Assembly: GCF_048403405.1 (NCBI RefSeq)
Contig: NZ_CP183129.1
Length of the DNA stretch: 64,000 bases
Reading direction: 5' to 3' (one strand)
DNA from: Escherichia coli
Lineage (GTDB): Bacteria; Pseudomonadota; Gammaproteobacteria; Enterobacterales; Enterobacteriaceae
Made by a program: the position numbers and the translations under genes. Below are positions 5,144 to 17,821 of this stretch, piece after piece. Numbering within the stretch: the first letter of the stretch is position 1; every line of letters begins with the position of its first letter. The notes below the pieces were generated by a model. That model had not been told where the DNA came from, ran no database searches, and saw only the letters and a program-made list of their open reading frames with translations.

Positions 5144-7135
5144 ATGTCCTCACGTAAAGAGCTTGCCAATGCTATTCGTGCGCTGAGCATGGACGCAGTA
5201 CAGAAAGCCAAATCCGGTCACCCGGGTGCCCCTATGGGTATGGCTGACATTGCCGAAGTCCTGTGGCGTGATTTCCTGAAACACAACCCGCAGAATCCGT
5301 CCTGGGCTGACCGTGACCGCTTCGTGCTGTCCAACGGTCACGGCTCCATGCTGATCTACAGCCTGCTGCACCTCACCGGTTACGATCTGCCGATGGAAGA
5401 ACTGAAAAACTTCCGTCAGCTGCACTCTAAAACTCCGGGCCACCCGGAAGTGGGTTACACCGCTGGTGTGGAAACCACTACAGGTCCGCTGGGTCAGGGT
5501 ATTGCCAATGCAGTCGGTATGGCGATTGCAGAAAAAACGCTGGCGGCGCAGTTTAACCGTCCGGGCCACGACATCGTCGACCACTACACCTACGCCTTCA
5601 TGGGCGACGGCTGCATGATGGAAGGCATCTCTCACGAAGTTTGCTCTCTGGCGGGTACGCTGAAGCTGGGTAAACTGATTGCGTTCTACGATGACAACGG
5701 TATTTCTATCGATGGTCACGTTGAAGGCTGGTTCACCGACGACACCGCAATGCGTTTCGAAGCCTACGGCTGGCACGTTATTCGCGACATCGACGGTCAT
5801 GACGCAGCATCCATCAAACGCGCAGTAGAAGAAGCGCGCGCAGTGACCGACAAACCGTCCCTGCTGATGTGCAAAACCATCATCGGTTTCGGTTCCCCGA
5901 ACAAAGCCGGTACGCACGACTCCCACGGTGCGCCGCTGGGCGACGCTGAAATCGCCCTGACCCGCGAACAGCTGGGCTGGAAATATGCACCGTTCGAAAT
6001 CCCGTCTGAAATCTATGCTCAGTGGGATGCGAAAGAAGCAGGCCAGGCGAAAGAATCCGCATGGAACGAGAAATTCGCTGCTTACGCGAAAGCTTATCCG
6101 CAGGAAGCCGCTGAATTTACCCGCCGTATGAAAGGCGAAATGCCGTCTGACTTCGACGCCAAAGCGAAAGAGTTCATCGCTAAACTGCAGGCTAATCCGG
6201 CGAAAATCGCCAGCCGTAAAGCGTCTCAGAATGCTATCGAAGCTTTCGGTCCGCTGTTGCCGGAATTCCTCGGCGGCTCTGCTGACCTGGCACCGTCTAA
6301 CCTGACCCTGTGGTCTGGTTCTAAAGCAATCAACGAAGATGCTGCGGGTAACTACATCCACTACGGTGTTCGCGAGTTCGGTATGACCGCGATTGCTAAC
6401 GGTATCTCCCTGCACGGTGGTTTCCTGCCGTACACCTCCACCTTCCTGATGTTCGTGGAATACGCACGTAACGCCGTACGTATGGCTGCGCTGATGAAAC
6501 AGCGTCAGGTGATGGTTTACACCCACGACTCCATCGGTCTGGGCGAAGATGGCCCGACTCACCAGCCAGTAGAGCAGGTCGCTTCACTGCGCGTGACCCC
6601 GAACATGTCCACATGGCGTCCGTGTGACCAGGTTGAATCCGCGGTCGCGTGGAAATACGGCGTTGAGCGTCAGGACGGCCCGACTGCGCTTATCCTCTCC
6701 CGTCAGAACCTGGCGCAGCAGGAGCGTACTGAAGAGCAGCTGGCAAACATCGCGCGCGGTGGTTATGTGCTGAAAGACTGTGCCGGTCAGCCGGAACTGA
6801 TCTTCATCGCGACCGGTTCGGAAGTTGAACTGGCGGTTGCCGCCTACGAAAAACTGACAGCCGAAGGCGTGAAGGCGCGCGTGGTTTCCATGCCGTCTAC
6901 CGACGCGTTCGACAAGCAGGATGCGGCTTACCGTGAATCCGTCCTGCCGAAAGCGGTTACTGCACGCGTTGCGGTAGAAGCGGGTATTGCTGACTACTGG
7001 TACAAGTATGTTGGCCTGAACGGTGCTATCGTCGGCATGACCACCTTCGGTGAATCTGCTCCGGCAGAGCAACTGTTTGAAGAGTTTGGTTTCACCGTTG
7101 ACAACGTTGTTGCGAAAGCCAAAGCGCTGCTGTAA
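5144..7135 (+). CDS. tktA: transketolase 1 (663 aa)
   Basis: [40 protein letters not shown]...; ORF-track begins 30 nt upstream at GTG; ATG at 5144 has the canonical N-terminus. Confidence 0.95.
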
Positions 7136-7156
7136 TCAGTAAGACGTTTTGTGAGA

Positions 7157-7183
7157 AGGGCCGCGAAAGCGGCCCTTTTTTTA
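7157..7183. terminator. bidirectional terminator between convergent tktA and SPFH gene
   Basis: AGGGCCGC-GAAA-GCGGCCCT stem-loop followed by TTTTTTT on plus strand; A-rich on the other side. Confidence 0.6.
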
Positions 7184-8089
7184 CTTAGTAGAGATAAACG
7201 GAACTGTACTGCCGGGGATCATGGTATCGGGTAGCTTACCGTCCCAACGCTCAGCAGTGGTGAGGGCAACAAGTCCGGGATTATCCCGCAGAGCTTCACC
7301 GCGCAGGCGGATAGCTTCTGCTTCAGCCGCACTTTTTAAACGAATAGTTTCAGCCTCTGCCGCGCCTCTTACGCGAATGGTCTCAGCTTCTGCTTTGGCC
7401 GCTGCAAGTTTACTGTCTGCTTCTGCCTGGGCCTGAGTTACCGCTATTTGCGCCTGGATTTTCTCTGTTTCCAGATTTTGCTTACGCGTGGCAATTGCAA
7501 CTTCCGCTTTCATTCGGTCTTCAATCGACTTTTCATAAGCGTCAGAAAAGTCAATATTTTCAATCTGGACCCCGTCAATCACCACCGGACCAACAACGGC
7601 TTTACGCATAGCATTTTGCAGATCCTGAACCAATTTTGTACGATCCTGTACGGCGCTGATGGCGGTATATTGGCCGAAAACGTTCTCCAGTTGAGTTGGC
7701 AACTGACGGACAATCAGACGATCTTTTAATGCTTCAATGGTGTTGTAGGTGGTATAAACCGCGCCTGCTTCTGAAGGTTTAATGTGGAAGCTGACTGATA
7801 CTGTCATTTGTGCCGGTTGCTGGTCGCGGCTGTAGGCCTGTAATCCTTGATAAACCACAGCCTGATTACGCGTGGAAATTTTCTCCACGCTTTCCATAAA
7901 AGGGATCTTAAAACCCAGACCCGGCTCGGCAACTTTTACGATTTTTCCGTAGCGCAGCAAAATGCCGCGTTCACCTTCATTAACGGTGTAATACGAGAGA
8001 AATGGCAGCACAACCACGGCAAGCACGCCAATGACGATAGCAATAGATTTTTGTGGGCGAAATGAGGTTATTGAAACAGGTGCTTTCAT
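7181..8089 (-). CDS. SPFH/band-7 (prohibitin/flotillin-like) membrane protein, 302 aa
   Basis: ORF-track 302 aa; N-terminal TM segment (IAIVIGVLAVVVLPFLSYY) then PHB-type core (EGERGILLRYGK...FKIPFMESV); C-terminal Ala/Glu-rich repeats AEAETIRVRGA/AEAETIRLKSA/AEAEAIRLRGE; SD AAGGAAG 6 nt upstream of ATG. Confidence 0.8.
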   Translation of the reverse strand: MKAPVSITSFRPQKSIAIVIGVLAVVVLPFLSYYTVNEGERGILLRYGKIVKVAEPGLGFKIPFMESVEKISTRNQAVVYQGLQAYSRDQQPAQMTVSVSFHIKPSEAGAVYTTYNTIEALKDRLIVRQLPTQLENVFGQYTAISAVQDRTKLVQDLQNAMRKAVVGPVVIDGVQIENIDFSDAYEKSIEDRMKAEVAIATRKQNLETEKIQAQIAVTQAQAEADSKLAAAKAEAETIRVRGAAEAETIRLKSAAEAEAIRLRGEALRDNPGLVALTTAERWDGKLPDTMIPGSTVPFISTK

Positions 8090-8465
8090 GACAATCTTCC
8101 TTGAGTAAAGTGTGGGAATATGTCACATGAGGTGAGGAGAAAACAGCCGACAGGTGAGAATTCAGAATCTATAAAGGGGTATAGCGAAAAAACATTGCAT
8201 TAAAAAGTATGCTTTCGGACATTCAATAAATAAATAGAGACATGCATCACAAATACAATAACAAACAAAATGTTGATTTTGTGATAAACATAACAAATAC
8301 AAAGTTGACTTTGTAAGTATTTATTTCATGTTGTTGTTATTTAAAGTTTTATTATTTTTGTTCATGGGGTTTTTCTTCTCGCGTACCCAATTGCTTTCAT
8401 TAAACCGCACGAGTATTTTATTTTTACCGCCGGACGGTACCCTAAAAATAAAATAAGGATAATTT

Positions 8466-8909
8466 ATGCGGCTTAGTGATTATTTTCCAGAATCATCAAT
8501 CTCAGTTATACATTCAGCAAAAGATTGGCAGGAAGCTATCGATTTCTCGATGGCATCATTGCTGGATAAAAACTATATCAGCGAGAATTACATTCAGGCA
8601 ATTAAAGATTCCACCATTAACAATAGCCCTTATTATATTCTCGCGCCAGGTGTGGCAATGCCTCATGCGCGACCGGAATGTGGGGCGCTTAAAACCGGGA
8701 TGTCTTTGGCGTTACTTAAACAAGGCGTTTATTTTCCGGGGAATGACGAACCGATTAAATTACTCATCGGGCTTTCTGCTGCCGATGCCGATTCGCACAT
8801 TGGCGCTATTCAGGCGTTAAGTGAATTACTGTGCGAAGAAGAAATACTCGAACAACTCTTAACAGCATCATCAGAAAAACAATTAGCGGACATTATCAGC
8901 CGCGGATAA
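8466..8909 (+). CDS. cmtB: PTS mannitol-like EIIA component (cryptic), 147 aa
   Basis: 147 aa; PTS EIIA (mannitol/fructose type) fold with H-containing motif MPHARPE; position and length match recalled cmtB. Confidence 0.88.
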   Translation: MRLSDYFPESSISVIHSAKDWQEAIDFSMASLLDKNYISENYIQAIKDSTINNSPYYILAPGVAMPHARPECGALKTGMSLALLKQGVYFPGNDEPIKLLIGLSAADADSHIGAIQALSELLCEEEILEQLLTASSEKQLADIISRG

Positions 8910-8936
8910 TTACTCTCTCCTCTACAGGATAATATT

Positions 8937-10325
8937 ATGGAAAACAAGTCTGCTCGTGCAAAGGTCCAGGCTTTTGGGGGTTTTTTGACGGCAATGGTCA
9001 TCCCCAATATCGGTGCTTTTATTGCCTGGGGCTTTATAACTGCGTTATTTATTCCCACCGGTTGGCTGCCGAATGAACATTTCGCCAAAATTGTCGGCCC
9101 GATGATTACCTATTTATTGCCCGTGATGATTGGTTCTACCGGTGGTCACCTGGTCGGCGGTAAACGCGGCGCGGTCATGGGCGGAATTGGTACGATTGGT
9201 GTGATCGTCGGCGCAGAGATCCCGATGTTCCTTGGCTCGATGATTATGGGGCCGCTCGGTGGTCTGGTGATTAAATATATCGACAAGGCGCTGGAAAAAC
9301 GCATACCTGCCGGTTTTGAGATGGTTATCAATAACTTCTCATTAGGTATCGCGGGGATGCTCCTTTGTCTGCTGGGTTTTGAAGTTATCGGCCCGGCGGT
9401 GTTAATTGCCAATACTTTCGTCAAAGAGTGTATCGAGGCGCTGGTACATGCGGGTTATCTGCCTCTGCTGTCAGTCATCAATGAACCGGCGAAAGTGCTT
9501 TTCCTCAATAATGCGATCGATCAGGGCGTCTATTATCCGCTGGGAATGCAACAGGCTTCGGTTAACGGTAAATCTATCTTCTTTATGGTGGCGTCCAATC
9601 CTGGGCCTGGCTTAGGGCTGCTGCTGGCGTTTACCTTGTTTGGTAAAGGGATGAGTAAACGTTCTGCGCCCGGGGCGATGATTATTCACTTCCTCGGTGG
9701 GATCCACGAACTGTATTTCCCGTATGTGCTGATGAAGCCGCTGACCATTATTGCCATGATTGCGGGCGGTATGTCTGGCACCTGGATGTTTAACTTACTG
9801 GACGGTGGTCTGGTGGCTGGCCCAAGTCCGGGGTCTATCTTTGCTTACCTGGCGCTGACGCCGAAAGGCTCATTCCTGGCGACAATTGCTGGTGTTACGG
9901 TAGGTACCCTGGTGTCCTTTGCTATCACTTCGCTGATACTGAAGATGGAAAAAACGGTGGAAACGGAGAACGAAGATGAGTTTGCTCAGTCAGCCAATGC
10001 GGTTAAGGCGATGAAACAAGAGGGTGCATTCTCGTTAAGCCGGGTTAAGCGTATCGCCTTTGTTTGCGATGCGGGGATGGGCTCCAGCGCGATGGGCGCG
10101 ACCACCTTCCGTAAACGCCTGGAAAAGGCGGGGCTGGCAATAGAAGTAAAACATTACGCGATAGAAAACGTGCCTGCGGATGCCGATATCGTCGTTACTC
10201 ATGCCAGTCTGGAAGGGCGCGTGAAACGTGTGACGGATAAACCGCTGATATTGATTAATAACTATATTGGCGATCCAAAACTCGACACTTTATTTAATCA
10301 ATTAACCGCCGAACATAAAAACTGA
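8937..10325 (+). CDS. cmtA: PTS mannitol-like EIICB component (cryptic), 462 aa
   Basis: 462 aa polytopic membrane protein with C-terminal EIIB-like domain (FVCDAGMGSSAMG); MtlA homolog; order cmtB-cmtA. Confidence 0.88.
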   Translation: MENKSARAKVQAFGGFLTAMVIPNIGAFIAWGFITALFIPTGWLPNEHFAKIVGPMITYLLPVMIGSTGGHLVGGKRGAVMGGIGTIGVIVGAEIPMFLGSMIMGPLGGLVIKYIDKALEKRIPAGFEMVINNFSLGIAGMLLCLLGFEVIGPAVLIANTFVKECIEALVHAGYLPLLSVINEPAKVLFLNNAIDQGVYYPLGMQQASVNGKSIFFMVASNPGPGLGLLLAFTLFGKGMSKRSAPGAMIIHFLGGIHELYFPYVLMKPLTIIAMIAGGMSGTWMFNLLDGGLVAGPSPGSIFAYLALTPKGSFLATIAGVTVGTLVSFAITSLILKMEKTVETENEDEFAQSANAVKAMKQEGAFSLSRVKRIAFVCDAGMGSSAMGATTFRKRLEKAGLAIEVKHYAIENVPADADIVVTHASLEGRVKRVTDKPLILINNYIGDPKLDTLFNQLTAEHKN

Positions 10326-10339
10326 TTGCCGAGGTAAAA

Positions 10340-11617
10340 ATGAAAACCAAAGTTGCTGCTATTTATGGCAAGCGGGATATCCGTCTGCGCGAATTTGAAC
10401 TGCCAGAAATTACCGATAATGAACTGCTGGTGAGTGTAATTTCTGACAGCGTCTGTTTATCGACCTGGAAAGCGGCGTTACTCGGTAGTGAACATAAACG
10501 CGTACCCGACGATTTAGAAAATCATCCGGTCATTACCGGGCATGAATGTGCCGGGGTTATTGTTGAAGTGGGTAAAAATCTCACTGGCAAATATAAAAAA
10601 GGCCAGCGTTTTGTATTGCAACCGGCGATGGGGTTACCAAGCGGATATTCAGCGGGCTACAGCTACGAATATTTTGGCGGCAATGCCACTTATATGATTA
10701 TTCCCGAAATCGCCATTAATTTGGGCTGCGTATTACCGTATCACGGCTCTTATTTTGCTGCGGCGTCGCTGGCAGAGCCTATGTGCTGCATTATTGGCGC
10801 TTATCATGCCAATTATCACACCACGCAATATGTTTATGAGCATCGCATGGGCGTTAAACCTGGCGGCAATATTGCGCTGCTGGCATGTGCTGGTCCGATG
10901 GGCATTGGCGCTATCGATTATGCTATTAACGGCGGCATACAACCGTCGCGGGTGGTGGTGGTCGATATCGACGACAAACGCCTGGCGCAGGTACAAAAGC
11001 TGCTGCCGGTGGAACTGGCGGCCAGTAAAGGCATTGAGCTGGTGTATATGAATACCAAAGGGATGAGCGATCCGGTCCAGACGCTGCGGGCGCTGACGGA
11101 TGATGCCGGATTTGATGACGTATTTGTCTATGCAGCGGTGCCTTCAGTCGTCGAGATGGCTGATGAATTACTGGCGGAAGATGGCTGCCTGAACTTCTTT
11201 GCCGGGCCGACGGATAAAAACTTCAAAGTGCCGTTTAATTTCTACAACGTCCATTACAACAGCACGCATGTCGTCGGTACGTCCGGCGGTTCAACGGACG
11301 ACATGAAAGAGGCGATTGCGCTTAGCGCCACAGGGCAGTTGCAGCCGTCGTTTATGGTGACCCATATCGGTGGGCTGGATGCGGTGCCTGATACCGTGCT
11401 CAATCTGCCGGATATCCCCGGCGGTAAAAAACTCATTTATAACGGCGTCACCATGCCGCTCACTGCCATTGCCGATTTTGCCGAAAAAGGCAAAACCGAT
11501 CCGCTGTTTAAAGAGCTGGCGCGGCTGGTTGAGGAAACGCACGGCATCTGGAATGAGCAGGCCGAGAAATATCTGCTGGCGCAATTTGGCGTTGATATCG
11601 GGGAGGCCGCACAATGA
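10340..11617 (+). CDS. yggP: zinc-type polyol/sugar-phosphate dehydrogenase family protein, 425 aa
   Basis: 425 aa; MDR alcohol dehydrogenase-like Cys/His motifs (GHECAG); order and length match recalled yggP. Confidence 0.8.
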   Translation: MKTKVAAIYGKRDIRLREFELPEITDNELLVSVISDSVCLSTWKAALLGSEHKRVPDDLENHPVITGHECAGVIVEVGKNLTGKYKKGQRFVLQPAMGLPSGYSAGYSYEYFGGNATYMIIPEIAINLGCVLPYHGSYFAAASLAEPMCCIIGAYHANYHTTQYVYEHRMGVKPGGNIALLACAGPMGIGAIDYAINGGIQPSRVVVVDIDDKRLAQVQKLLPVELAASKGIELVYMNTKGMSDPVQTLRALTDDAGFDDVFVYAAVPSVVEMADELLAEDGCLNFFAGPTDKNFKVPFNFYNVHYNSTHVVGTSGGSTDDMKEAIALSATGQLQPSFMVTHIGGLDAVPDTVLNLPDIPGGKKLIYNGVTMPLTAIADFAEKGKTDPLFKELARLVEETHGIWNEQAEKYLLAQFGVDIGEAAQ

Positions 11618-12579
11618 TGTCCCTGGCGTGGCCATTATTTCGCGTTACGGAACAGGCAGCGTTGGCTGCCTGGCCGCAAACCGGATGTGGCGACAAAAAT
11701 AAAATTGATGGCCTGGCGGTCACCGCGATGCGCCAGGCATTAAACGACGTCGCTTTTCGTGGGCGAGTGGTTATCGGCGAGGGAGAGATTGACCATGCGC
11801 CGATGCTGTGGATTGGCGAAGAGGTGGGCAAAGGCGATGGGCCAGAAGTCGATATCGCGGTTGACCCGATTGAAGGTACGCGGATGGTGGCGATGGGGCA
11901 GAGCAATGCGCTGGCGGTCATGGCTTTCGCCCCTCGAGATAGCCTGTTACACGCGCCCGATATGTATATGAAAAAACTGGTTGTTAATCGGCTGGCGGCG
12001 GGCGCGATTGATCTGTCCATGCCTCTGGCGGACAACTTGCGCAACGTGGCGAAAGCGTTAGGCAAACCGCTGGACAAGCTGCGTATGGTTACGCTGGATA
12101 AACCGCGCCTGAGTGCCGCAATTGAGGAAGCAACACAGCTGGGCGTGAAGGTTTTTGCCCTGCCGGATGGCGATGTCGCCGCCAGCGTGCTGACCTGCTG
12201 GCAGGATAATCCTTACGATGTGATGTACACCATCGGCGGTGCGCCAGAAGGCGTGATTTCTGCCTGTGCCGTTAAAGCATTAGGCGGGGATATGCAGGCC
12301 GAGCTGATTGACTTTTGTCAGGCTAAAGGGGATTACACGGAAAATCGGCAGATTGCAGTGCAGGAGCGCAAGCGTTGCAAGGAAATGGGCGTTGACGTTA
12401 ACCGTGTGTACTCGCTCGATGAACTGGTGAGGGGGAACGATATCCTCTTTAGCGCTACGGGCGTGACGGGCGGCGAGCTAGTGAACGGTATCCAACAGAC
12501 GGCGAATGGGGTGCGGACGCAGACATTACTGATCGGCGGCGCGGACCAAACGTGTAATATAATAGACTCCCTGCATTGA
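11614..12579 (+). CDS. yggF: class II fructose-1,6-bisphosphatase (GlpX family), 321 aa
   Basis: 321 aa; GlpX-like sequence; 4-bp overlap with yggP stop. Confidence 0.82.
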   Translation: MMSLAWPLFRVTEQAALAAWPQTGCGDKNKIDGLAVTAMRQALNDVAFRGRVVIGEGEIDHAPMLWIGEEVGKGDGPEVDIAVDPIEGTRMVAMGQSNALAVMAFAPRDSLLHAPDMYMKKLVVNRLAAGAIDLSMPLADNLRNVAKALGKPLDKLRMVTLDKPRLSAAIEEATQLGVKVFALPDGDVAASVLTCWQDNPYDVMYTIGGAPEGVISACAVKALGGDMQAELIDFCQAKGDYTENRQIAVQERKRCKEMGVDVNRVYSLDELVRGNDILFSATGVTGGELVNGIQQTANGVRTQTLLIGGADQTCNIIDSLH

Positions 12580-12600
12580 TGGTGATCTATCGGAAGACCA

Positions 12601-13110
12601 ATGGCGACGCTGACAGAAGATGATGTGCTTGAGCAACTGGAGGCACAGGACAATTTATTTTCATTTATGAAAACTGCGCATACCATTTTGCTCCAGGGGA
12701 TACGCCAGTTTCTGCCGTCGCTGTTTGTCAATAACGATGAAGAGATCGTGGAATATGCAGTGAAGCCGTTACTCGCCCAAAGCGGCCCGCTTGACGATAT
12801 TGATGTTGCGCTGCGTTTGATTTATGCGCTGGGGAAAATGGATAAATGGCTGTACGCCGATATCACGCATTTTTCCCAGTTCTGGCATTACCTGAACGAA
12901 CAGAATGAAATGCCCGGATTTGCCGATGACATGACCTGGGATTTTATTAGCAACGTCAATAGCATAACCCGCAATGCGACTCTCTATGACGCGTTGAAAG
13001 CGATGAAGTTCGCCGATTTCGCCGTCTGGTCAGAGGCGCGTTTTAGCGGGATGGTCAAAACGGCGCTGACGCTGGCAGTAACGACAACCTTAAAGGAATT
13101 AACGCCGTGA
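12601..13110 (+). CDS. yggD: MtlR-family protein (recalled as fumarase D / YggD), 169 aa
   Basis: 169 aa; position/length match recalled yggD. Confidence 0.75.
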   Translation: MATLTEDDVLEQLEAQDNLFSFMKTAHTILLQGIRQFLPSLFVNNDEEIVEYAVKPLLAQSGPLDDIDVALRLIYALGKMDKWLYADITHFSQFWHYLNEQNEMPGFADDMTWDFISNVNSITRNATLYDALKAMKFADFAVWSEARFSGMVKTALTLAVTTTLKELTP

Positions 13111-13820
13111 AAATCGAACTGACGGTGAATGGACTAAAGGTACAGGCGCAGTACTCTGATGATGAAATTGAGAATGTTCATAAACCGCTACTGCGTATGC
13201 TGGCGGCCTTACAGACGGTAAATCCGCAGCGGCGTACGGTGGTTTTTCTTTGCGCTCCGCCTGGTACAGGAAAATCGACTCTGACCACCTTCTGGGAATA
13301 TCTTGCGCAACAAGACCCCGAACTGCCCGCTATTCAGACGCTGCCGATGGATGGTTTTCATCATTACAATAGCTGGCTGGATGCGCATCAATTGCGCCCC
13401 TTCAAAGGCGCACCAGAGACATTTGACGTTGCGAAACTGGCGGAAAATCTGCGCCAGGTAATGGAAGGGGATTGTACGTGGCCGCAGTACGATCGACAAA
13501 AGCATGATCCTGTTGAAGATGCGCTGCACGTTACCGCACCCCTCGTCATCGTCGAAGGAAACTGGCTATTACTGGATGATGAAAAGTGGCAGGAGTTGGC
13601 ATCTTTCTGCGATTTTTCTATTTTTATTCATGCACCTGCTCAAATTCTGCGGGAGCGCTTGATTAGTCGTAAAATTGCGGGAGGATTATCGCGGCAAGAA
13701 GCCGAAGCTTTTTATGCCCGAACCGATGGTCCCAATGTCGAGCGTGTGCTGGTGAATAGTCGTCAGGCCAATCTGATATTAGAGATGACCGAAGAAGGCA
13801 GATATCACTTCAAAAGCTGA
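13107..13820 (+). CDS. yggC: P-loop nucleoside/nucleotide kinase-like protein, 237 aa
   Basis: 237 aa; Walker A motif APPGTGKST; 4-bp overlap with yggD. Confidence 0.78.
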   Translation: MKIELTVNGLKVQAQYSDDEIENVHKPLLRMLAALQTVNPQRRTVVFLCAPPGTGKSTLTTFWEYLAQQDPELPAIQTLPMDGFHHYNSWLDAHQLRPFKGAPETFDVAKLAENLRQVMEGDCTWPQYDRQKHDPVEDALHVTAPLVIVEGNWLLLDDEKWQELASFCDFSIFIHAPAQILRERLISRKIAGGLSRQEAEAFYARTDGPNVERVLVNSRQANLILEMTEEGRYHFKS

Positions 13821-14104
13821 CAATTTATTCCAGTTATTGCAGGGGTATTATTACGCCAGCCTGGAATAAAGCCCCCTACAAAAGGGGATAAAAGTGTGAT
13901 GTAAGTCAGATAAATGTCTTCTTCGGCTGGACAATCATTCCTTTTATTCCACGTTTCGCTTATCCTAGCTGAAGCGTTTCAGTCGATTAAATGTTCGACA
14001 ATTAACCAATCAGTCGCAGTTTGCGACAGGTAAGGTTTCCCCGGACGATTTGCTGGATTACTCTGTCTGGCAAATTTGCTCAGGGAAAACCTTGCAGGAG
14101 ATCT

Positions 14105-15124
14105 ATGACCGTACGCGTAGCGATAAATGGCTTCGGTCGCATCGGGCGTAATGTGGTTCGTGCTTTGTATGAATCCGGACGCCGGGCGGAAATTACCGTG
14201 GTGGCAATCAACGAACTGGCGGATGCTGCGGGCATGGCGCATTTGTTGAAATATGACACCAGCCATGGCCGTTTTGCATGGGAAGTACGACAGGAACGCG
14301 ATCAACTTTTTGTTGGTGATGACGCCATCCGCGTATTGCATGAACGTTCACTGCAATCGCTCCCCTGGCGTGAACTTGGCGTTGATGTAGTCCTCGACTG
14401 CACCGGCGTATATGGCTCCCGCGAGCATGGCGAAGCGCATATTGCCGCCGGGGCCAAAAAAGTGCTCTTTTCACATCCTGGCAGTAACGATCTCGACGCG
14501 ACCGTTGTTTACGGCGTCAATCAGGATCAACTTCGTGCGGAACACCGCATCGTTTCTAACGCTTCCTGTACCACGAATTGCATAATTCCCGTCATCAAAT
14601 TGTTAGATGATGCGTACGGTATTGAGTCCGGCACTGTGACCACAATTCACTCCGCCATGCACGATCAACAGGTTATTGATGCATACCATCCTGACCTGCG
14701 TCGCACCCGGGCAGCCAGCCAGTCGATCATTCCGGTCGATACTAAACTGGCCGCCGGTATCACACGATTTTTTCCGCAATTTAACGATCGCTTTGAAGCG
14801 ATTGCGGTACGTGTGCCAACCATAAATGTGACGGCAATCGATTTAAGCGTGACGGTGAAGAAACCTGTAAAAGCCAATGAAGTCAACCTGTTGCTGCAAA
14901 AAGCAGCACAAGGTGCATTTCATGGTATAGTTGACTATACGGAATTGCCGTTGGTCTCTGTAGATTTTAACCACGATCCGCACAGTGCCATTGTCGATGG
15001 CACCCAAACCCGGGTCAGTGGCGCACACCTGATCAAAACGTTGGTCTGGTGCGATAACGAATGGGGCTTTGCTAACCGAATGCTCGACACGACGTTAGCT
15101 ATGGCTACTGTTGCTTTCAGGTAA
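14105..15124 (+). CDS. epd: erythrose-4-phosphate dehydrogenase, 339 aa
   Basis: ATG at 14105 gives [25 protein letters not shown]... (GAPDH family); ORF-track start 14021 is an over-extension. Confidence 0.9.
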
Positions 15125-15173
15125 GACGCAAGCAGCGTCTGCAAAACTTTTAGAATCAACGAGAGGATTCACC

Positions 15174-16337
15174 ATGTCTGTAATTAAGATGACCGATCTG
15201 GATCTTGCTGGGAAACGTGTATTTATCCGTGCGGATCTGAACGTACCAGTAAAAGACGGGAAAGTAACCAGCGACGCGCGTATCCGTGCTTCTCTGCCGA
15301 CCATCGAACTGGCCCTGAAACAAGGCGCAAAAGTGATGGTAACTTCCCACCTGGGTCGTCCTACCGAAGGCGAGTACAACGAAGAATTCTCTCTGCTGCC
15401 GGTTGTTAACTACCTGAAAGACAAACTGTCTAACCCGGTTCGTTTGGTTAAAGATTACCTCGACGGCGTTGACGTTGCTGAAGGTGAACTGGTTGTTCTG
15501 GAAAACGTTCGCTTCAACAAAGGCGAGAAGAAAGACGACGAAACTCTGTCCAAAAAATACGCTGCACTGTGTGACGTGTTCGTAATGGACGCATTCGGTA
15601 CTGCTCACCGCGCGCAGGCTTCTACTCACGGTATCGGTAAATTTGCTGATGTTGCGTGCGCAGGTCCGCTGCTGGCAGCTGAACTGGACGCGCTGGGTAA
15701 AGCACTGAAAGAACCTGCTCGCCCGATGGTGGCTATCGTTGGTGGTTCTAAAGTATCTACCAAACTGACCGTTCTGGACTCCCTGTCTAAAATCGCTGAC
15801 CAGCTGATTGTTGGTGGTGGCATCGCTAACACCTTTATCGCGGCACAAGGCCACGATGTGGGTAAATCTCTGTACGAAGCTGACCTGGTTGACGAAGCTA
15901 AACGTCTGCTGACCACCTGCAACATCCCGGTTCCGTCTGATGTTCGCGTAGCAACCGAGTTCTCTGAAACTGCACCGGCTACCCTGAAATCTGTTAACGA
16001 TGTGAAAGCTGACGAGCAGATCCTGGATATCGGTGATGCTTCCGCTCAGGAACTGGCTGAAATCCTGAAGAATGCGAAAACCATTCTGTGGAACGGTCCG
16101 GTTGGCGTGTTCGAATTCCCGAACTTCCGCAAAGGTACTGAAATCGTGGCTAACGCTATCGCAGACAGCGAAGCGTTCTCCATCGCTGGCGGCGGCGACA
16201 CTCTGGCAGCAATCGACCTGTTCGGCATTGCTGACAAAATCTCCTACATCTCCACTGGCGGCGGTGCATTCCTCGAATTCGTGGAAGGTAAAGTACTGCC
16301 TGCAGTAGCGATGCTCGAAGAGCGCGCTAAGAAGTAA
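15174..16337 (+). CDS. pgk: phosphoglycerate kinase, 387 aa
   Basis: [25 protein letters not shown]...; ORF-track start 15111 is over-extended. Confidence 0.95.
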
Positions 16338-16551
16338 AAAAATCACAGGGCAGGGAAACCTGCCCTTGTTGCAGCGCGCTTTTAAAGCACGCACTTTTTC
16401 ATACTCTAAATAATTCGAGTTGCAGGAAGGCGACAAGAGAGTGAATCCCATGAGCTTACATAAGTAAGTGACTGAGGTGAGCGAACGCAGACGCAGCACA
16501 TGCAACTTGAAGTATGACGAGTATAAGGCCCGACGATACAGGACAAGAGAC

Positions 16552-17631
16552 ATGTCTAAGATTTTTGATTTCGTAAAACCTGGCGTAATCACTGGTGATG
16601 ACGTACAGAAAGTTTTCCAGGTAGCAAAAGAAAACAACTTCGCACTGCCAGCAGTAAACTGCGTCGGTACTGACTCCATCAACGCCGTGCTGGAAACCGC
16701 TGCTAAAGTTAAAGCGCCGGTTATCGTTCAGTTCTCCAACGGTGGTGCTTCCTTTATCGCTGGTAAAGGCGTGAAATCTGACGTTCCGCAGGGCGCTGCT
16801 ATCCTGGGCGCGATCTCTGGTGCGCATCACGTTCACCAGATGGCTGAACATTATGGTGTTCCGGTTATCCTGCACACCGACCACTGCGCGAAGAAACTGC
16901 TGCCGTGGATCGACGGTCTGCTGGACGCGGGTGAGAAACACTTCGCTGCTACCGGTAAGCCGCTGTTCTCTTCTCACATGATCGACCTGTCTGAAGAATC
17001 TCTGCAAGAGAACATCGAAATCTGCTCTAAATACCTGGAGCGCATGTCCAAAATCGGCATGACTCTGGAAATCGAACTGGGTTGCACCGGTGGTGAAGAA
17101 GACGGCGTAGACAACAGCCACATGGACGCTTCTGCACTGTACACCCAGCCGGAAGACGTTGATTACGCATACACCGAGCTGAGCAAAATCAGCCCGCGTT
17201 TCACCATCGCTGCGTCCTTCGGTAACGTACACGGTGTTTACAAGCCGGGTAACGTGGTTCTGACTCCGACCATCCTGCGTGATTCTCAGGAATATGTTTC
17301 TAAGAAACACAACCTGCCGCACAACAGCCTGAACTTCGTATTCCACGGTGGTTCCGGTTCTACTGCTCAGGAAATCAAAGACTCCGTAAGCTACGGCGTA
17401 GTGAAAATGAACATCGATACCGATACCCAATGGGCAACCTGGGAAGGCGTTCTGAACTACTACAAAGCGAACGAAGCTTACCTGCAGGGTCAGCTGGGTA
17501 ACCCGAAAGGCGAAGATCAGCCGAACAAGAAATACTACGATCCGCGCGTATGGCTGCGTGCCGGTCAGACTTCGATGATCGCTCGTCTGGAAAAAGCATT
17601 CCAGGAACTGAACGCGATCGACGTTCTGTAA
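16552..17631 (+). CDS. fbaA: fructose-bisphosphate aldolase class II, 359 aa
   Basis: MSKIFDFVKPGVITGDDVQKVFQVAKENNFALPAVNCVG...; ORF-track start 16468 over-extended. Confidence 0.95.
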   Translation: MSKIFDFVKPGVITGDDVQKVFQVAKENNFALPAVNCVGTDSINAVLETAAKVKAPVIVQFSNGGASFIAGKGVKSDVPQGAAILGAISGAHHVHQMAEHYGVPVILHTDHCAKKLLPWIDGLLDAGEKHFAATGKPLFSSHMIDLSEESLQENIEICSKYLERMSKIGMTLEIELGCTGGEEDGVDNSHMDASALYTQPEDVDYAYTELSKISPRFTIAASFGNVHGVYKPGNVVLTPTILRDSQEYVSKKHNLPHNSLNFVFHGGSGSTAQEIKDSVSYGVVKMNIDTDTQWATWEGVLNYYKANEAYLQGQLGNPKGEDQPNKKYYDPRVWLRAGQTSMIARLEKAFQELNAIDVL

Positions 17632-17655
17632 GTCATTCCTTTCTGCTTATCTCAA

Positions 17656-17680
17656 GGCCCGCTCTGCGGGTCTTTTTTTC
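17656..17680 (+). terminator. fbaA terminator
   Basis: GGCCCGC-TCT-GCGGGTC hairpin followed by TTTTTTT. Confidence 0.55.
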
Positions 17681-17821
17681 GCCAAAAGCAAGGTGATGCA
17701 GATGAGAAATCTGTGATCTATTTGGCAAAATTATGCTTTATTGTTTACCCTTGTCAGACTGCCCGTCATAAGGCGGCGGAGTGTATTTCTCCATTTTGAG
17801 TCAGTTGAAAAGGAATATTGA

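Follow-up and report, generated by a model that had tools for sequence, protein, structure and literature searches.

The six genes cmtB, cmtA, yggP, yggF, yggD and yggC occupy positions 8466 to 13820 of a 64,000-nucleotide stretch of Escherichia coli DNA (contig NZ_CP183129.1 of assembly GCF_048403405.1; the whole stretch is here called the window). Taking pathway and regulation together, we consider it plausible, if a little short of probable, that they form one CRP-dependent catabolic operon for an exogenous polyol of mannitol configuration. In the proposed pathway, the phosphotransferase system (PTS) proteins CmtB (EIIA) and CmtA (EIICB) would import the polyol and phosphorylate its terminal carbon, and YggP would oxidise the carbon beside the phosphate, running the SorE reaction in reverse, to give a ketose-1-phosphate. 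YggC, replacing a PfkB-type 1-phosphofructokinase, would phosphorylate the other end to yield a ketose-1,omega-bisphosphate of the fructose-1,6-bisphosphate (FBP) or sedoheptulose-1,7-bisphosphate (SBP) type. A class II aldolase (fbaA lies in the next operon downstream) would then split the bisphosphate, and YggF would take the 1-phosphate off part of the pool, providing hexose-6-phosphate or heptose-7-phosphate for biosynthesis and the pentose-phosphate pathway. Every one of these steps is inferred; what was observed are the genes present, their families, their conservation and the selection on them, together with the conserved residues and the pair of CRP-like sites.

YggD is most likely a CRP-anchored anti-activator of the operon and not primarily the "fumarase E" of current annotation. 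Upstream of cmtB, a YggD dimer would dock on a pair of CRP dimers spaced 44 bp apart and block activation by CRP, and when substrate flows, dephosphorylated CmtA IIB would sequester YggD at the membrane.

Gene layout and proposed operon structure

The six open reading frames (ORFs) of the cluster are the following:

cmtB, 8466..8909, + strand, 147 aa: PTS EIIA of the EIIA_2 family
cmtA, 8937..10325, + strand, 462 aa: PTS EIICB of the mannitol subfamily
yggP, 10340..11617, + strand, 425 aa: Zn-dependent medium-chain alcohol dehydrogenase of the SorE family
yggF, 11614..12579, + strand, 321 aa: class II, GlpX-type fructose-1,6-bisphosphatase (FBPase); shares its first 4 nt with the end of yggP
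yggD (annotated fumE), 12601..13110, + strand, 169 aa: MtlR family, with no DNA-binding domain
yggC, 13107..13820, + strand, 237 aa: P-loop kinase; shares its first 4 nt with the end of yggD

The six lengths match those of K-12 genes b2934-b2928, and RefSeq names the same six genes here (cmtB, cmtA, yggP, a glpX-type yggF, fumE, which is yggD, and yggC). The original prediction had described six co-oriented, tightly packed or overlapping genes at 8466-13820, and the ORFs were found exactly there; Pfam and NCBIfam matched each identity that it had given (EIIA, EIICB, Zn-dehydrogenase, GlpX-type FBPase, MtlR-like protein and P-loop kinase). The spacing between successive genes, from cmtB through yggC, is 27, 14, −4, 21 and −4 nt, two pairs thus overlapping by 4 nt, and the gene order is conserved; a single transcript from cmtB to yggC may be supposed. 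Nothing that we observed contradicted the predicted co-transcription: in a scan of 7100-14200 for sigma-70 promoter and terminator consensus sequences, matches were no commoner than in shuffled sequence, and the same scan found no convincing cmtB promoter.

The original prediction had also called the cluster a complete uptake-to-glycolysis module whose substrate is not established. The genes for uptake and for the enzymes are present, but E. coli has no aldolase gene of its own in the cluster, so that "complete" holds in part. On the substrate the prediction was right: a full-text literature search on the gene names and their synonyms gave no paper that assigns one to cmtBA-yggPFDC, most of the matches to yggF and yggP being peptide sequences. 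The 2026 RefSeq and K-12 annotations still read cmtA/cmtB, yggP, yggC, "fructose 1,6-bisphosphatase YggF" and "fumarase E".

Conserved core and accessory genes in related loci

A scan of one genome per species provided 80 related loci, whose ORFs were called and labelled by BLASTP. The ORF calling was crude (greedy longest ORF); it missed YggP in locus L080 and split some genes. The following arrangements were observed:

Enterobacterales: CmtB-CmtA-YggP-YggF-YggD-YggC, in 42 of 53 loci
Enterobacterales without YggF (Rahnella, Budvicia, Serratia): CmtB-CmtA-YggP-YggD-YggC, in 7 of 53 loci
Vibrionaceae: CmtB-CmtA-YggP-YggD-YggC plus a 248-aa PHP protein; exact order in 16 of 18 loci, PHP gene in 18 of 18
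Bacillota: a PRD-type activator, then EIIA-YggC-EIICB-YggP, with no YggD and no phosphatase; core in 10 of 11 loci

The genes for EIIA, EIICB, YggP and YggC are adjacent in the 53 Enterobacterales loci, the 18 Vibrionaceae loci and 10 of the 11 Bacillota loci. Because these four are common to all the lineage arrangements, we define them as the conserved core; the regulator and the phosphatase are replaceable. In two Vibrionaceae loci some of the ORFs are broken: CmtA, YggC and the PHP gene of Vibrio maritimus (L074) each appear as two consecutive ORFs, and in a metagenome-assembled genome (MAG; L058) YggD is cut down to a 75-aa ORF. Either assembly-error frameshifts or local pseudogenisation would account for these cases.

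Several loci carry accessory genes of sugar phosphate metabolism. In a Hespellia MAG (L083, 11263-15054), a class II FBP aldolase, an EIIA_2 protein, a true 1-phosphofructokinase and a second YggP directly follow the cluster; the start of the aldolase gene lies within the end of yggP, and the second dehydrogenase, a member of the YggP/SorE family, is 53% identical to YggP. These extra genes look like a paralogous module that leads from a polyol through fructose-1-phosphate to FBP, and its pairing of a YggP paralogue with a PfkB-type 1-phosphofructokinase would be the closest thing to an internal control for YggC as a 1-phosphoketose kinase. A pyrophosphate-dependent phosphofructokinase (PPi-PFK) is encoded upstream of the cluster in three Bacillota loci (Hungatella and another Bacillota genome). 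In Rahnella laticis, genes for fructose-bisphosphate aldolase (FBA) and then transketolase (Tkt) come after YggC; in the Vibrionaceae, four loci have tal-tkt upstream, and tkt of V. mediterranei starts 16 nt downstream of the PHP gene. Anaerotalea alkaliphila (L080, 3685-11427) has its own Enzyme I, HPr and a split transketolase (N- and C-terminal subunits) after the cluster in the same orientation, and the overlap of the HPr and TktN reading frames suggests that these genes belong to a single operon. We favour a route from polyol-1-phosphate to ketose-1-phosphate and bisphosphate, and from there to aldolase and phosphatase, because it would fit these accessory genes (FBP aldolase, PPi-PFK, 1-phosphofructokinase and transketolase) best.

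The uptake system, the dehydrogenase and the kinase

CmtA matches the PTS_EIIC and PTS_IIB models and CmtB the PTS_EIIA_2 model in Pfam and NCBIfam. The EIIC domain of CmtA narrowly passes the cutoffs of TIGR00851 (mtlA; 480.1 bits, cutoff 468.4) and NF011663 (593 bits, cutoff 589). CmtA is 53% identical to the IIC-IIB part of MtlA, its IIB active-site loop CDAGMGSSAMGA is the same as the MtlA loop around Cys384, and the His in the VAMPHARPE motif of CmtB aligns with His554 of MtlA, the phosphorylatable His. The EIIC model cutoff, the Cys loop of EIIB and the His of EIIA place CmtAB by sequence among the mannitol-subfamily Enzymes II of the PTS Fru/Mtl family. The literature searched contained no assay of D-mannitol transport or phosphorylation by CmtAB. 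Mutants in mtlA are mannitol-negative, which argues against efficient mannitol use by CmtAB.

YggP is homologous to SorE over its full length, C-terminal extension included. It shares 45% identity over 98% of the length (E-value 2e-113) with sorE of the canonical Klebsiella pneumoniae sorCDFBAM-E operon, and 41.5% with a Lactiplantibacillus plantarum homologue located in a sorbose-type cluster with a Man-family PTS and a short-chain dehydrogenase/reductase (SDR). The Zn ligands of YggP are C39, H68, E69 and E146, and its nucleotide-binding motif is G185-x-x-G188-x-G190 plus D209; C39, H68, E69, E146 and D209 are invariant in the YggP/SorE alignment. YggP orthologues from Vibrionaceae and Clostridia are 63-67% identical across phyla, against 41-46% to SorE, and thus form a tighter group of their own. 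True sorE loci have both a Man-type PTS and an SDR partner, whereas neither adjoins YggP in any of the 80 loci. Two other ways of characterising the enzyme were tried and set aside: named NCBIfam families gave weak, sub-threshold matches only (IolM, 87 bits against a cutoff of 450), and the residue that closes the second beta-strand, D209, is no guide to cofactor or reaction direction, since it is invariant in YggP and SorE alike.

SorE reduces L-sorbose-1-phosphate to D-glucitol-6-phosphate and therefore works on the carbon beside the phosphorylated one, unlike MtlD. Counted from the phosphate end, the first three carbinol carbons of D-glucitol-6-phosphate and D-mannitol-1-phosphate are configured alike. 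On this stereochemical ground, YggP would be expected to convert D-mannitol-1-phosphate to fructose-1-phosphate; by analogy, the same logic would give xylulose-1-phosphate from D-arabinitol-5-phosphate and sedoheptulose-1-phosphate from volemitol-1-phosphate. The name "L-sorbose 1-phosphate reductase" is already attached to YggP orthologues in some sources. Deletion of sorE in E. coli ST131 has been reported to abolish sorbose use, so the chromosomal YggP is no substitute for SorE there, in a study that did not check YggP expression.

YggC matches NCBIfam PRK09270 with 507 bits as well as the PanK and Udk models, and its nearest solved relatives are 3C8U (deposited as "fructokinase") and PanK. 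In 16 orthologues, from E. coli to Clostridia, the motifs PPGxGKS/T (K56, T58), DGFH (82-85) and EGNW (150-153) and the residues R184, R188 and K189 are invariant. This retention of the Walker A motif, DGFH, EGNW and the basic residues suggests that YggC is an active small-molecule kinase. A prediction published in 2011 made the protein a "sugar/polyol kinase", with tests described as in progress at the time, and mutants in the rhizobial homologue FrcK, which is not the fructokinase, have been reported to grow poorly on fructose, mannitol and sorbitol. The 4-nt overlap of yggD and yggC had raised the idea that YggC is a protein kinase acting on YggD; we rejected it as the main reading because the Bacillota keep YggC between the EIIA and EIICB genes in clusters without YggD.

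A replaceable phosphatase

YggF is assigned to the GlpX-type FBPases by TIGR00330, an equivalog model (582 bits, cutoff 259), and by PF03320 (E-value 6e-121), and its nearest solved relative is E. coli GlpX (1NI9, E-value 1e-109). Its FBPase activity in vitro was reported by Brown et al. (2009), as related in papers citing that work. The GlpX family includes bifunctional enzymes that act on both FBP and SBP. A GlpX-type YggF is present in 45 of the 53 Enterobacterales loci, and in its place all 18 Vibrionaceae loci encode the 248-aa PHP protein, which is YcdX-like (E-value 6e-64 against E. coli YcdX, PDB 1M65; for example at L003 12603-13349). The clusters of the Bacillota and of Rahnella, Budvicia and Serratia encode no phosphatase. 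The phosphatase is thus displaced non-orthologously, the position being taken by a GlpX-type YggF, a YcdX-like PHP protein or neither, and the PHP swap may be the first contextual clue to the substrate class of the YcdX family, namely sugar bisphosphates. A 265-aa ORF after YggC in Rahnella was considered as a third phosphatase type and discarded: it is periplasmic thioredoxin/ScsC-like and unrelated. In the proposed pathway, the monophosphate needed for biosynthesis would come from the bisphosphatase or from a reversible PPi-PFK, a role like the one ascribed to glpX in glpFKX.

Paired CRP-like sites and the MtlR-like protein YggD

The cmtB promoter has been reported to be bound by cAMP-CRP and to lose its activity in a crp mutant, and yggF is listed as a CRP target. 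A search of the 376 bp before cmtB for TGTGAN6TCACA with up to three mismatches gave just two sites, whose centres are 44 bp apart:

distal CRP-like site AGAGACATGCATCACA, 8236..8251: 2 mismatches, centre 222.5 bp upstream of the cmtB ATG
proximal CRP-like site TGTGATAAACATAACA, 8280..8295: 1 mismatch, centre 178.5 bp upstream of the ATG

These sites are consensus matches and not measured binding sites; CRP binding to the cmtB promoter itself is what has been published. K-12 has CRP-like sites at the same two positions, 44 bp apart, despite its differing sequence. Beyond about −100, the region upstream of cmtB is strongly divergent between this strain and K-12, and both CRP-like positions are kept. 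A pair of CRP-like sites with two or fewer mismatches occurs in 32 of 51 Enterobacterales loci, at a spacing of 44 bp in 24 and 45 bp in 8, and relaxing the threshold raises the number of loci with a pair to 43 of 51; Limnobaculum has two perfect sites at 45 bp. As controls, a 44/45-bp pair was found in 12 of 2070 other windows (0.6%) and in 6 of 10200 shuffles, no other spacing was enriched, and the same scan recovered the published spacings of 43, 44, 73 and 44 in the mtl operator upstream of mtlA.

A spacing of this kind has a defined function in the mtl operon (Lee et al. 2026, July). According to that study, MtlR has no DNA-binding domain, and its dimer represses by docking on two CRP dimers whose spacing is 43-46 bp and ideally 44-45 bp; docking needs R167 and L178 of MtlR, and dephosphorylated MtlA IIB sequesters MtlR at the membrane, freeing the promoter. 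Of the 331 CRP-regulated transcription units analysed there, mtl was reported to be the only one with the 44-bp CRP pair, and YggD and cmt are not mentioned (Lee et al. 2026).

We observed that YggD and the cmt promoter share these features. YggD matches PF05068 (MtlR) with an E-value of 1e-52, and its solved structure, 3C8G, is labelled "putative transcriptional regulator". MtlR and YggD align at 24-32% identity, YggD being shorter by about 45 N-terminal residues, and only 19 columns are invariant. R167 and L178 of MtlR are among them; they correspond to R147 and L158 of YggD and are invariant in E. coli MtlR, Rahnella MtlR and nine YggD orthologues. The IIB active-site loop of CmtA has exactly the sequence of the MtlA loop that serves as the docking site of MtlR. 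No direct DNA binding by YggD was detected in a published ChIP-exo study, and YggD is absent exactly where the PRD-type activator is present, in the Bacillota loci. Because the protein and the promoter share features defined for MtlR, YggD would be predicted to act as a CRP-anchored anti-activator. The only Pfam or NCBIfam match of YggD is the MtlR family, and neither database gave a fumarase or lyase domain. Fumarase activity of YggD may be real, although it is unlikely to be the main role.

Purifying selection on the cluster

The window belongs to the E. coli chromosome, and its segment 8000-14500 is 100% identical to several clinical isolates. Of 5426 complete E. coli genomes, 5425 contain the region, and in 5387 of them its coverage is 80% or more. 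Relative to E. albertii, Citrobacter, Salmonella diarizonae, Raoultella and Buttiauxella, the ratio of nonsynonymous to synonymous divergence (dN/dS) is 0.02-0.19 for all six genes, a range comparable to that of tkt and epd. With E. albertii as the reference, five of the six cmt/ygg genes show a synonymous divergence (dS) of 0.28-0.67, higher than the 0.18-0.20 of tkt and epd and consistent with weak expression. The exception is yggD, with a dS of only 0.07; this may reflect a recent recombination tract or extra constraint on that DNA.

The original prediction had called the cluster cryptic. The word should not be taken to mean decay in a cluster that is under purifying selection and whose promoter is activated by CRP. 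One could go further and regard the genes, which were named "cryptic" and have no known inducing substrate, as a decaying relic that is no longer functional, and the raised synonymous divergence relative to the flanking housekeeping genes would agree with low expression. However, all six ORFs are intact, selection on them resembles that on tkt and epd, nearly every genome has the region, and the architecture is held across families. In addition to the CRP dependence of the promoter, cmtB has been reported to be induced 2-3 fold in bovine gut contents, and a yggF deletion to grow less well in glycerol fermentation. The relic reading, to which we give hardly any credence, is effectively refuted by the selection and conservation data.

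Alternative readings

Several points weigh against the polyol pathway and the regulation proposed above. The literature searched contained no enzyme assay or growth phenotype that ties a polyol to the operon. E. coli mtlA mutants fail on mannitol and K-12 fails on D-arabitol; therefore, these first choices are unlikely to be the substrate, or else they do not induce the operon. At 45% identity, YggP may not have kept the regiochemistry and stereochemistry of SorE, and a kinase and a 1-phosphatase acting on one bisphosphate look futile unless the phosphatase is a side flux only. The presence of transketolase beside the cluster in several lineages means that a pentose- or heptose-phosphate product fits better than FBP. 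As for the regulation, the positions of the CRP-like sites are known relative to the ATG only and were not interpreted relative to the transcription start, which could not be placed, so the promoter geometry is not established. The Vibrionaceae clusters have YggD, yet most of them are without the 44-45 bp pair, and MtlR rather than YggD might be the user of that pair. Finally, YggD was renamed fumarase E (fumE) after an in vitro metabolomics screen.

The transketolase neighbours suggest a different product. A C5 or C7 polyol such as D-arabinitol or volemitol could be converted by YggP, through its phosphate, to xylulose-1-phosphate or sedoheptulose-1-phosphate and by YggC to the 1,5- or 1,7-bisphosphate, from which YggF or the PHP protein, as an obligatory phosphatase, would release xylulose-5-phosphate or sedoheptulose-7-phosphate (S7P) for transketolase, so that the phosphate is in effect transposed; alternatively, SBP could be split by FBA into dihydroxyacetone phosphate and erythrose-4-phosphate (E4P). 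Transketolase is adjacent in at least four separate arrangements (upstream tktA in Enterobacteriaceae, and those of Vibrionaceae, Rahnella laticis and Anaerotalea described above), the function of the phosphatase is kept through non-orthologous displacement, the GlpX family has bifunctional members, and all the accessory enzymes seen (FBA, GlpX, PPi-PFK, transaldolase, Tkt and Epd) handle SBP, S7P or E4P. On the other hand, the phosphatase-less clusters of the Bacillota, Rahnella, Budvicia and Serratia would need an unlinked enzyme for an obligatory step, the Hespellia locus ties the family to FBP aldolase and 1-phosphofructokinase, K-12 carries the operon and does not use D-arabitol, heptitols are scarce as nutrients, and the tkt adjacency in Enterobacteriaceae is one inherited arrangement. 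We consider phosphate transposition unlikely. If CmtAB instead took up a ketose and phosphorylated its C1, as FruA and the sorbose PTS do, YggP would reduce the ketose-1-phosphate to a hexitol phosphate for other enzymes. The only characterised relatives of YggP are indeed L-sorbose-1-phosphate reductases, a label that some of its own orthologues bear, and Mtl- and Fru-type Enzymes II belong to one PTS family. But CmtA scores above the mannitol EIIC cutoffs and is close to MtlA, none of the 80 loci has a linked second dehydrogenase corresponding to SorD, YggC, the kinase linked throughout, would be left without a role, and the ST131 sorE deletion, with the proviso about expression given above, was not rescued by YggP. 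Uptake of a ketose thus appears distinctly improbable.

The historical name of the genes points to a redundant second mannitol PTS, in which CmtAB would feed mannitol-1-phosphate to MtlD, YggF would be a spare gluconeogenic FBPase, YggD a fumarase and YggC unrelated. The "mannitol-specific" annotation, the mannitol-family cutoffs passed by CmtA, the FBPase activity and glycerol-fermentation phenotype of YggF and the fumarase annotation of YggD would all agree with this. However, YggP and YggC stay beside the Enzyme II genes across three phyla, in other gene orders and without MtlD; the start and stop codons overlap by 4 nt; and YggD matches the MtlR domain only. Moreover, in Rahnella the cmt-like cluster is directly followed by a complete mtlA-mtlD-mtlR operon (L048-L052, about 13900-17800), which disfavours redundancy and argues for another substrate. 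This adjacency places two mannitol-type PTS and two MtlR-family proteins side by side in one genome. We regard a redundant mannitol PTS as very improbable. A bolder reading than the polyol operon proposed here would see a new PTS route, in which a SorE-type dehydrogenase and the PRK/PanK-like YggC make a 1,omega-bisphosphate, together with YggD and cmt as the second instance of a CRP-anchored anti-activator and its 44-bp operator; we hold this combination to be possible, if doubtful. The substrate might then be a heptitol such as volemitol, entering as SBP, which would explain why FBA, a GlpX- or YcdX-like phosphatase, PPi-PFK, transaldolase and transketolase, and Epd are the neighbours.

Relation to known systems

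The closest known system is mtlADR of E. coli. Both have a mannitol-subfamily EIICB with an identical IIB loop, the His of EIIA_2, an MtlR-family gene in the operon and a CRP-dependent promoter with CRP sites 44 bp apart. The cmt cluster, however, encodes EIIA as a protein of its own, has a SorE-type Zn dehydrogenase in place of one of the MtlD type (mannitol-1-phosphate 5-dehydrogenase) and adds a P-loop kinase and an FBPase, and one CRP pair was detected as opposed to the five sites of mtl. The sor operons (sorCDFBAME of Klebsiella and E. coli; sorRE/sorFABCDG of Lactobacillaceae) share with cmt the full-length SorE homologue (41-46% identity, with the same Zn ligands and D209) and a PTS-linked route through a ketose-1-phosphate/hexitol phosphate pair. 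They differ in having a four-subunit Man-family PTS, the SDR SorD and the SorC regulator and no kinase, whereas cmt has an Mtl-type PTS, no second dehydrogenase and the extra YggC.

The fructose route (FruBA, fructose-1-phosphate, FruK, FBP) and the galactitol/tagatose route (Gat PTS, GatD, a PfkB-type kinase, GatY) resemble the proposed pathway in combining a PTS and an optional Zn dehydrogenase with a further phosphorylation that yields a ketose-1,6-bisphosphate and with a class II aldolase. The kinase of cmt is PRK/Udk/PanK-like and not PfkB- or PfkA-like, and a linked bisphosphatase occurs in cmt only. In glpFKX, as in cmt, a class II FBPase is grouped with an uptake and phosphorylation system under CRP control; the transporter, the substrate and the other enzymes are different, and analogy with glpX is the sole source of the role that we suggest for YggF.

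Flanking genes and other features of the locus

The flanks and the remaining features are as follows:

tkt, 5144-7135: upstream flank
SPFH/Band-7 prohibitin family gene, 7181-8089, − strand, 302 aa: between tkt and cmtB
sigma-54-type site CTGGCGGCAATATTGCG, 10860..10876, + strand: inside yggP, 738 nt upstream of yggF, in the orientation of the genes
G+C-rich hairpin CCCCCTACAAAAGGGGA, 13872..13888: about 50 nt past the yggC stop, called by the terminator scan on the minus strand only
CRP-like site with 1 mismatch TGTGATGTAAGTCAGA, 13895-13910: in the yggC-epd spacer, just beyond the hairpin
epd-pgk-fbaA, from 14105: downstream flank

The cluster had been placed between tktA and epd-pgk-fbaA. 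Both flanks are right, but the SPFH/prohibitin gene intervenes before cmtB. This gene is missing in K-12, which has a 313-bp spacer instead, and is carried by 1830 of 5426 complete E. coli genomes (34%); its presence also varies among the Escherichia species in the loci fetched. The sigma-54-type site has been published in K-12 as intragenic site IS35, and it occurs in the window with 1 mismatch. The hairpin is a possible, weak candidate for the terminator at the end of the operon, and the CRP-like site beyond it presumably belongs to the promoter region of epd-pgk-fbaA.

Significance

The genes have long been annotated, and the idea of an orphan PTS is not new. What is new is the definition of the conserved core; the assignment of YggP to the SorE family, which implies a ketose-1-phosphate intermediate; the non-orthologous displacement of the phosphatase, with a candidate role for YcdX-type proteins; the associations with aldolase, phosphofructokinase and transketolase; and the finding that the cmt promoter and YggD share features that were defined for MtlR in 2026.

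Essentially every E. coli genome has the operon, and purifying selection on it goes back to a time before its versions were acquired by enterobacteria, vibrios and gut clostridia. Comparison across genomes now gives this long-orphan operon a testable order of reactions and a testable regulatory switch. If the bolder reading of a new PTS route is correct, it would give the YcdX-type PHP phosphatases their first physiological role. If the proposed pathway is correct, a new kinase family would enter central sugar metabolism and the metabolic models of E. coli would gain a carbon source. If the proposed regulation is correct, the "fumarase E" annotation of YggD would need to be revisited, and CRP-anchored repression would represent a small family of switches and not the peculiarity of one operon.

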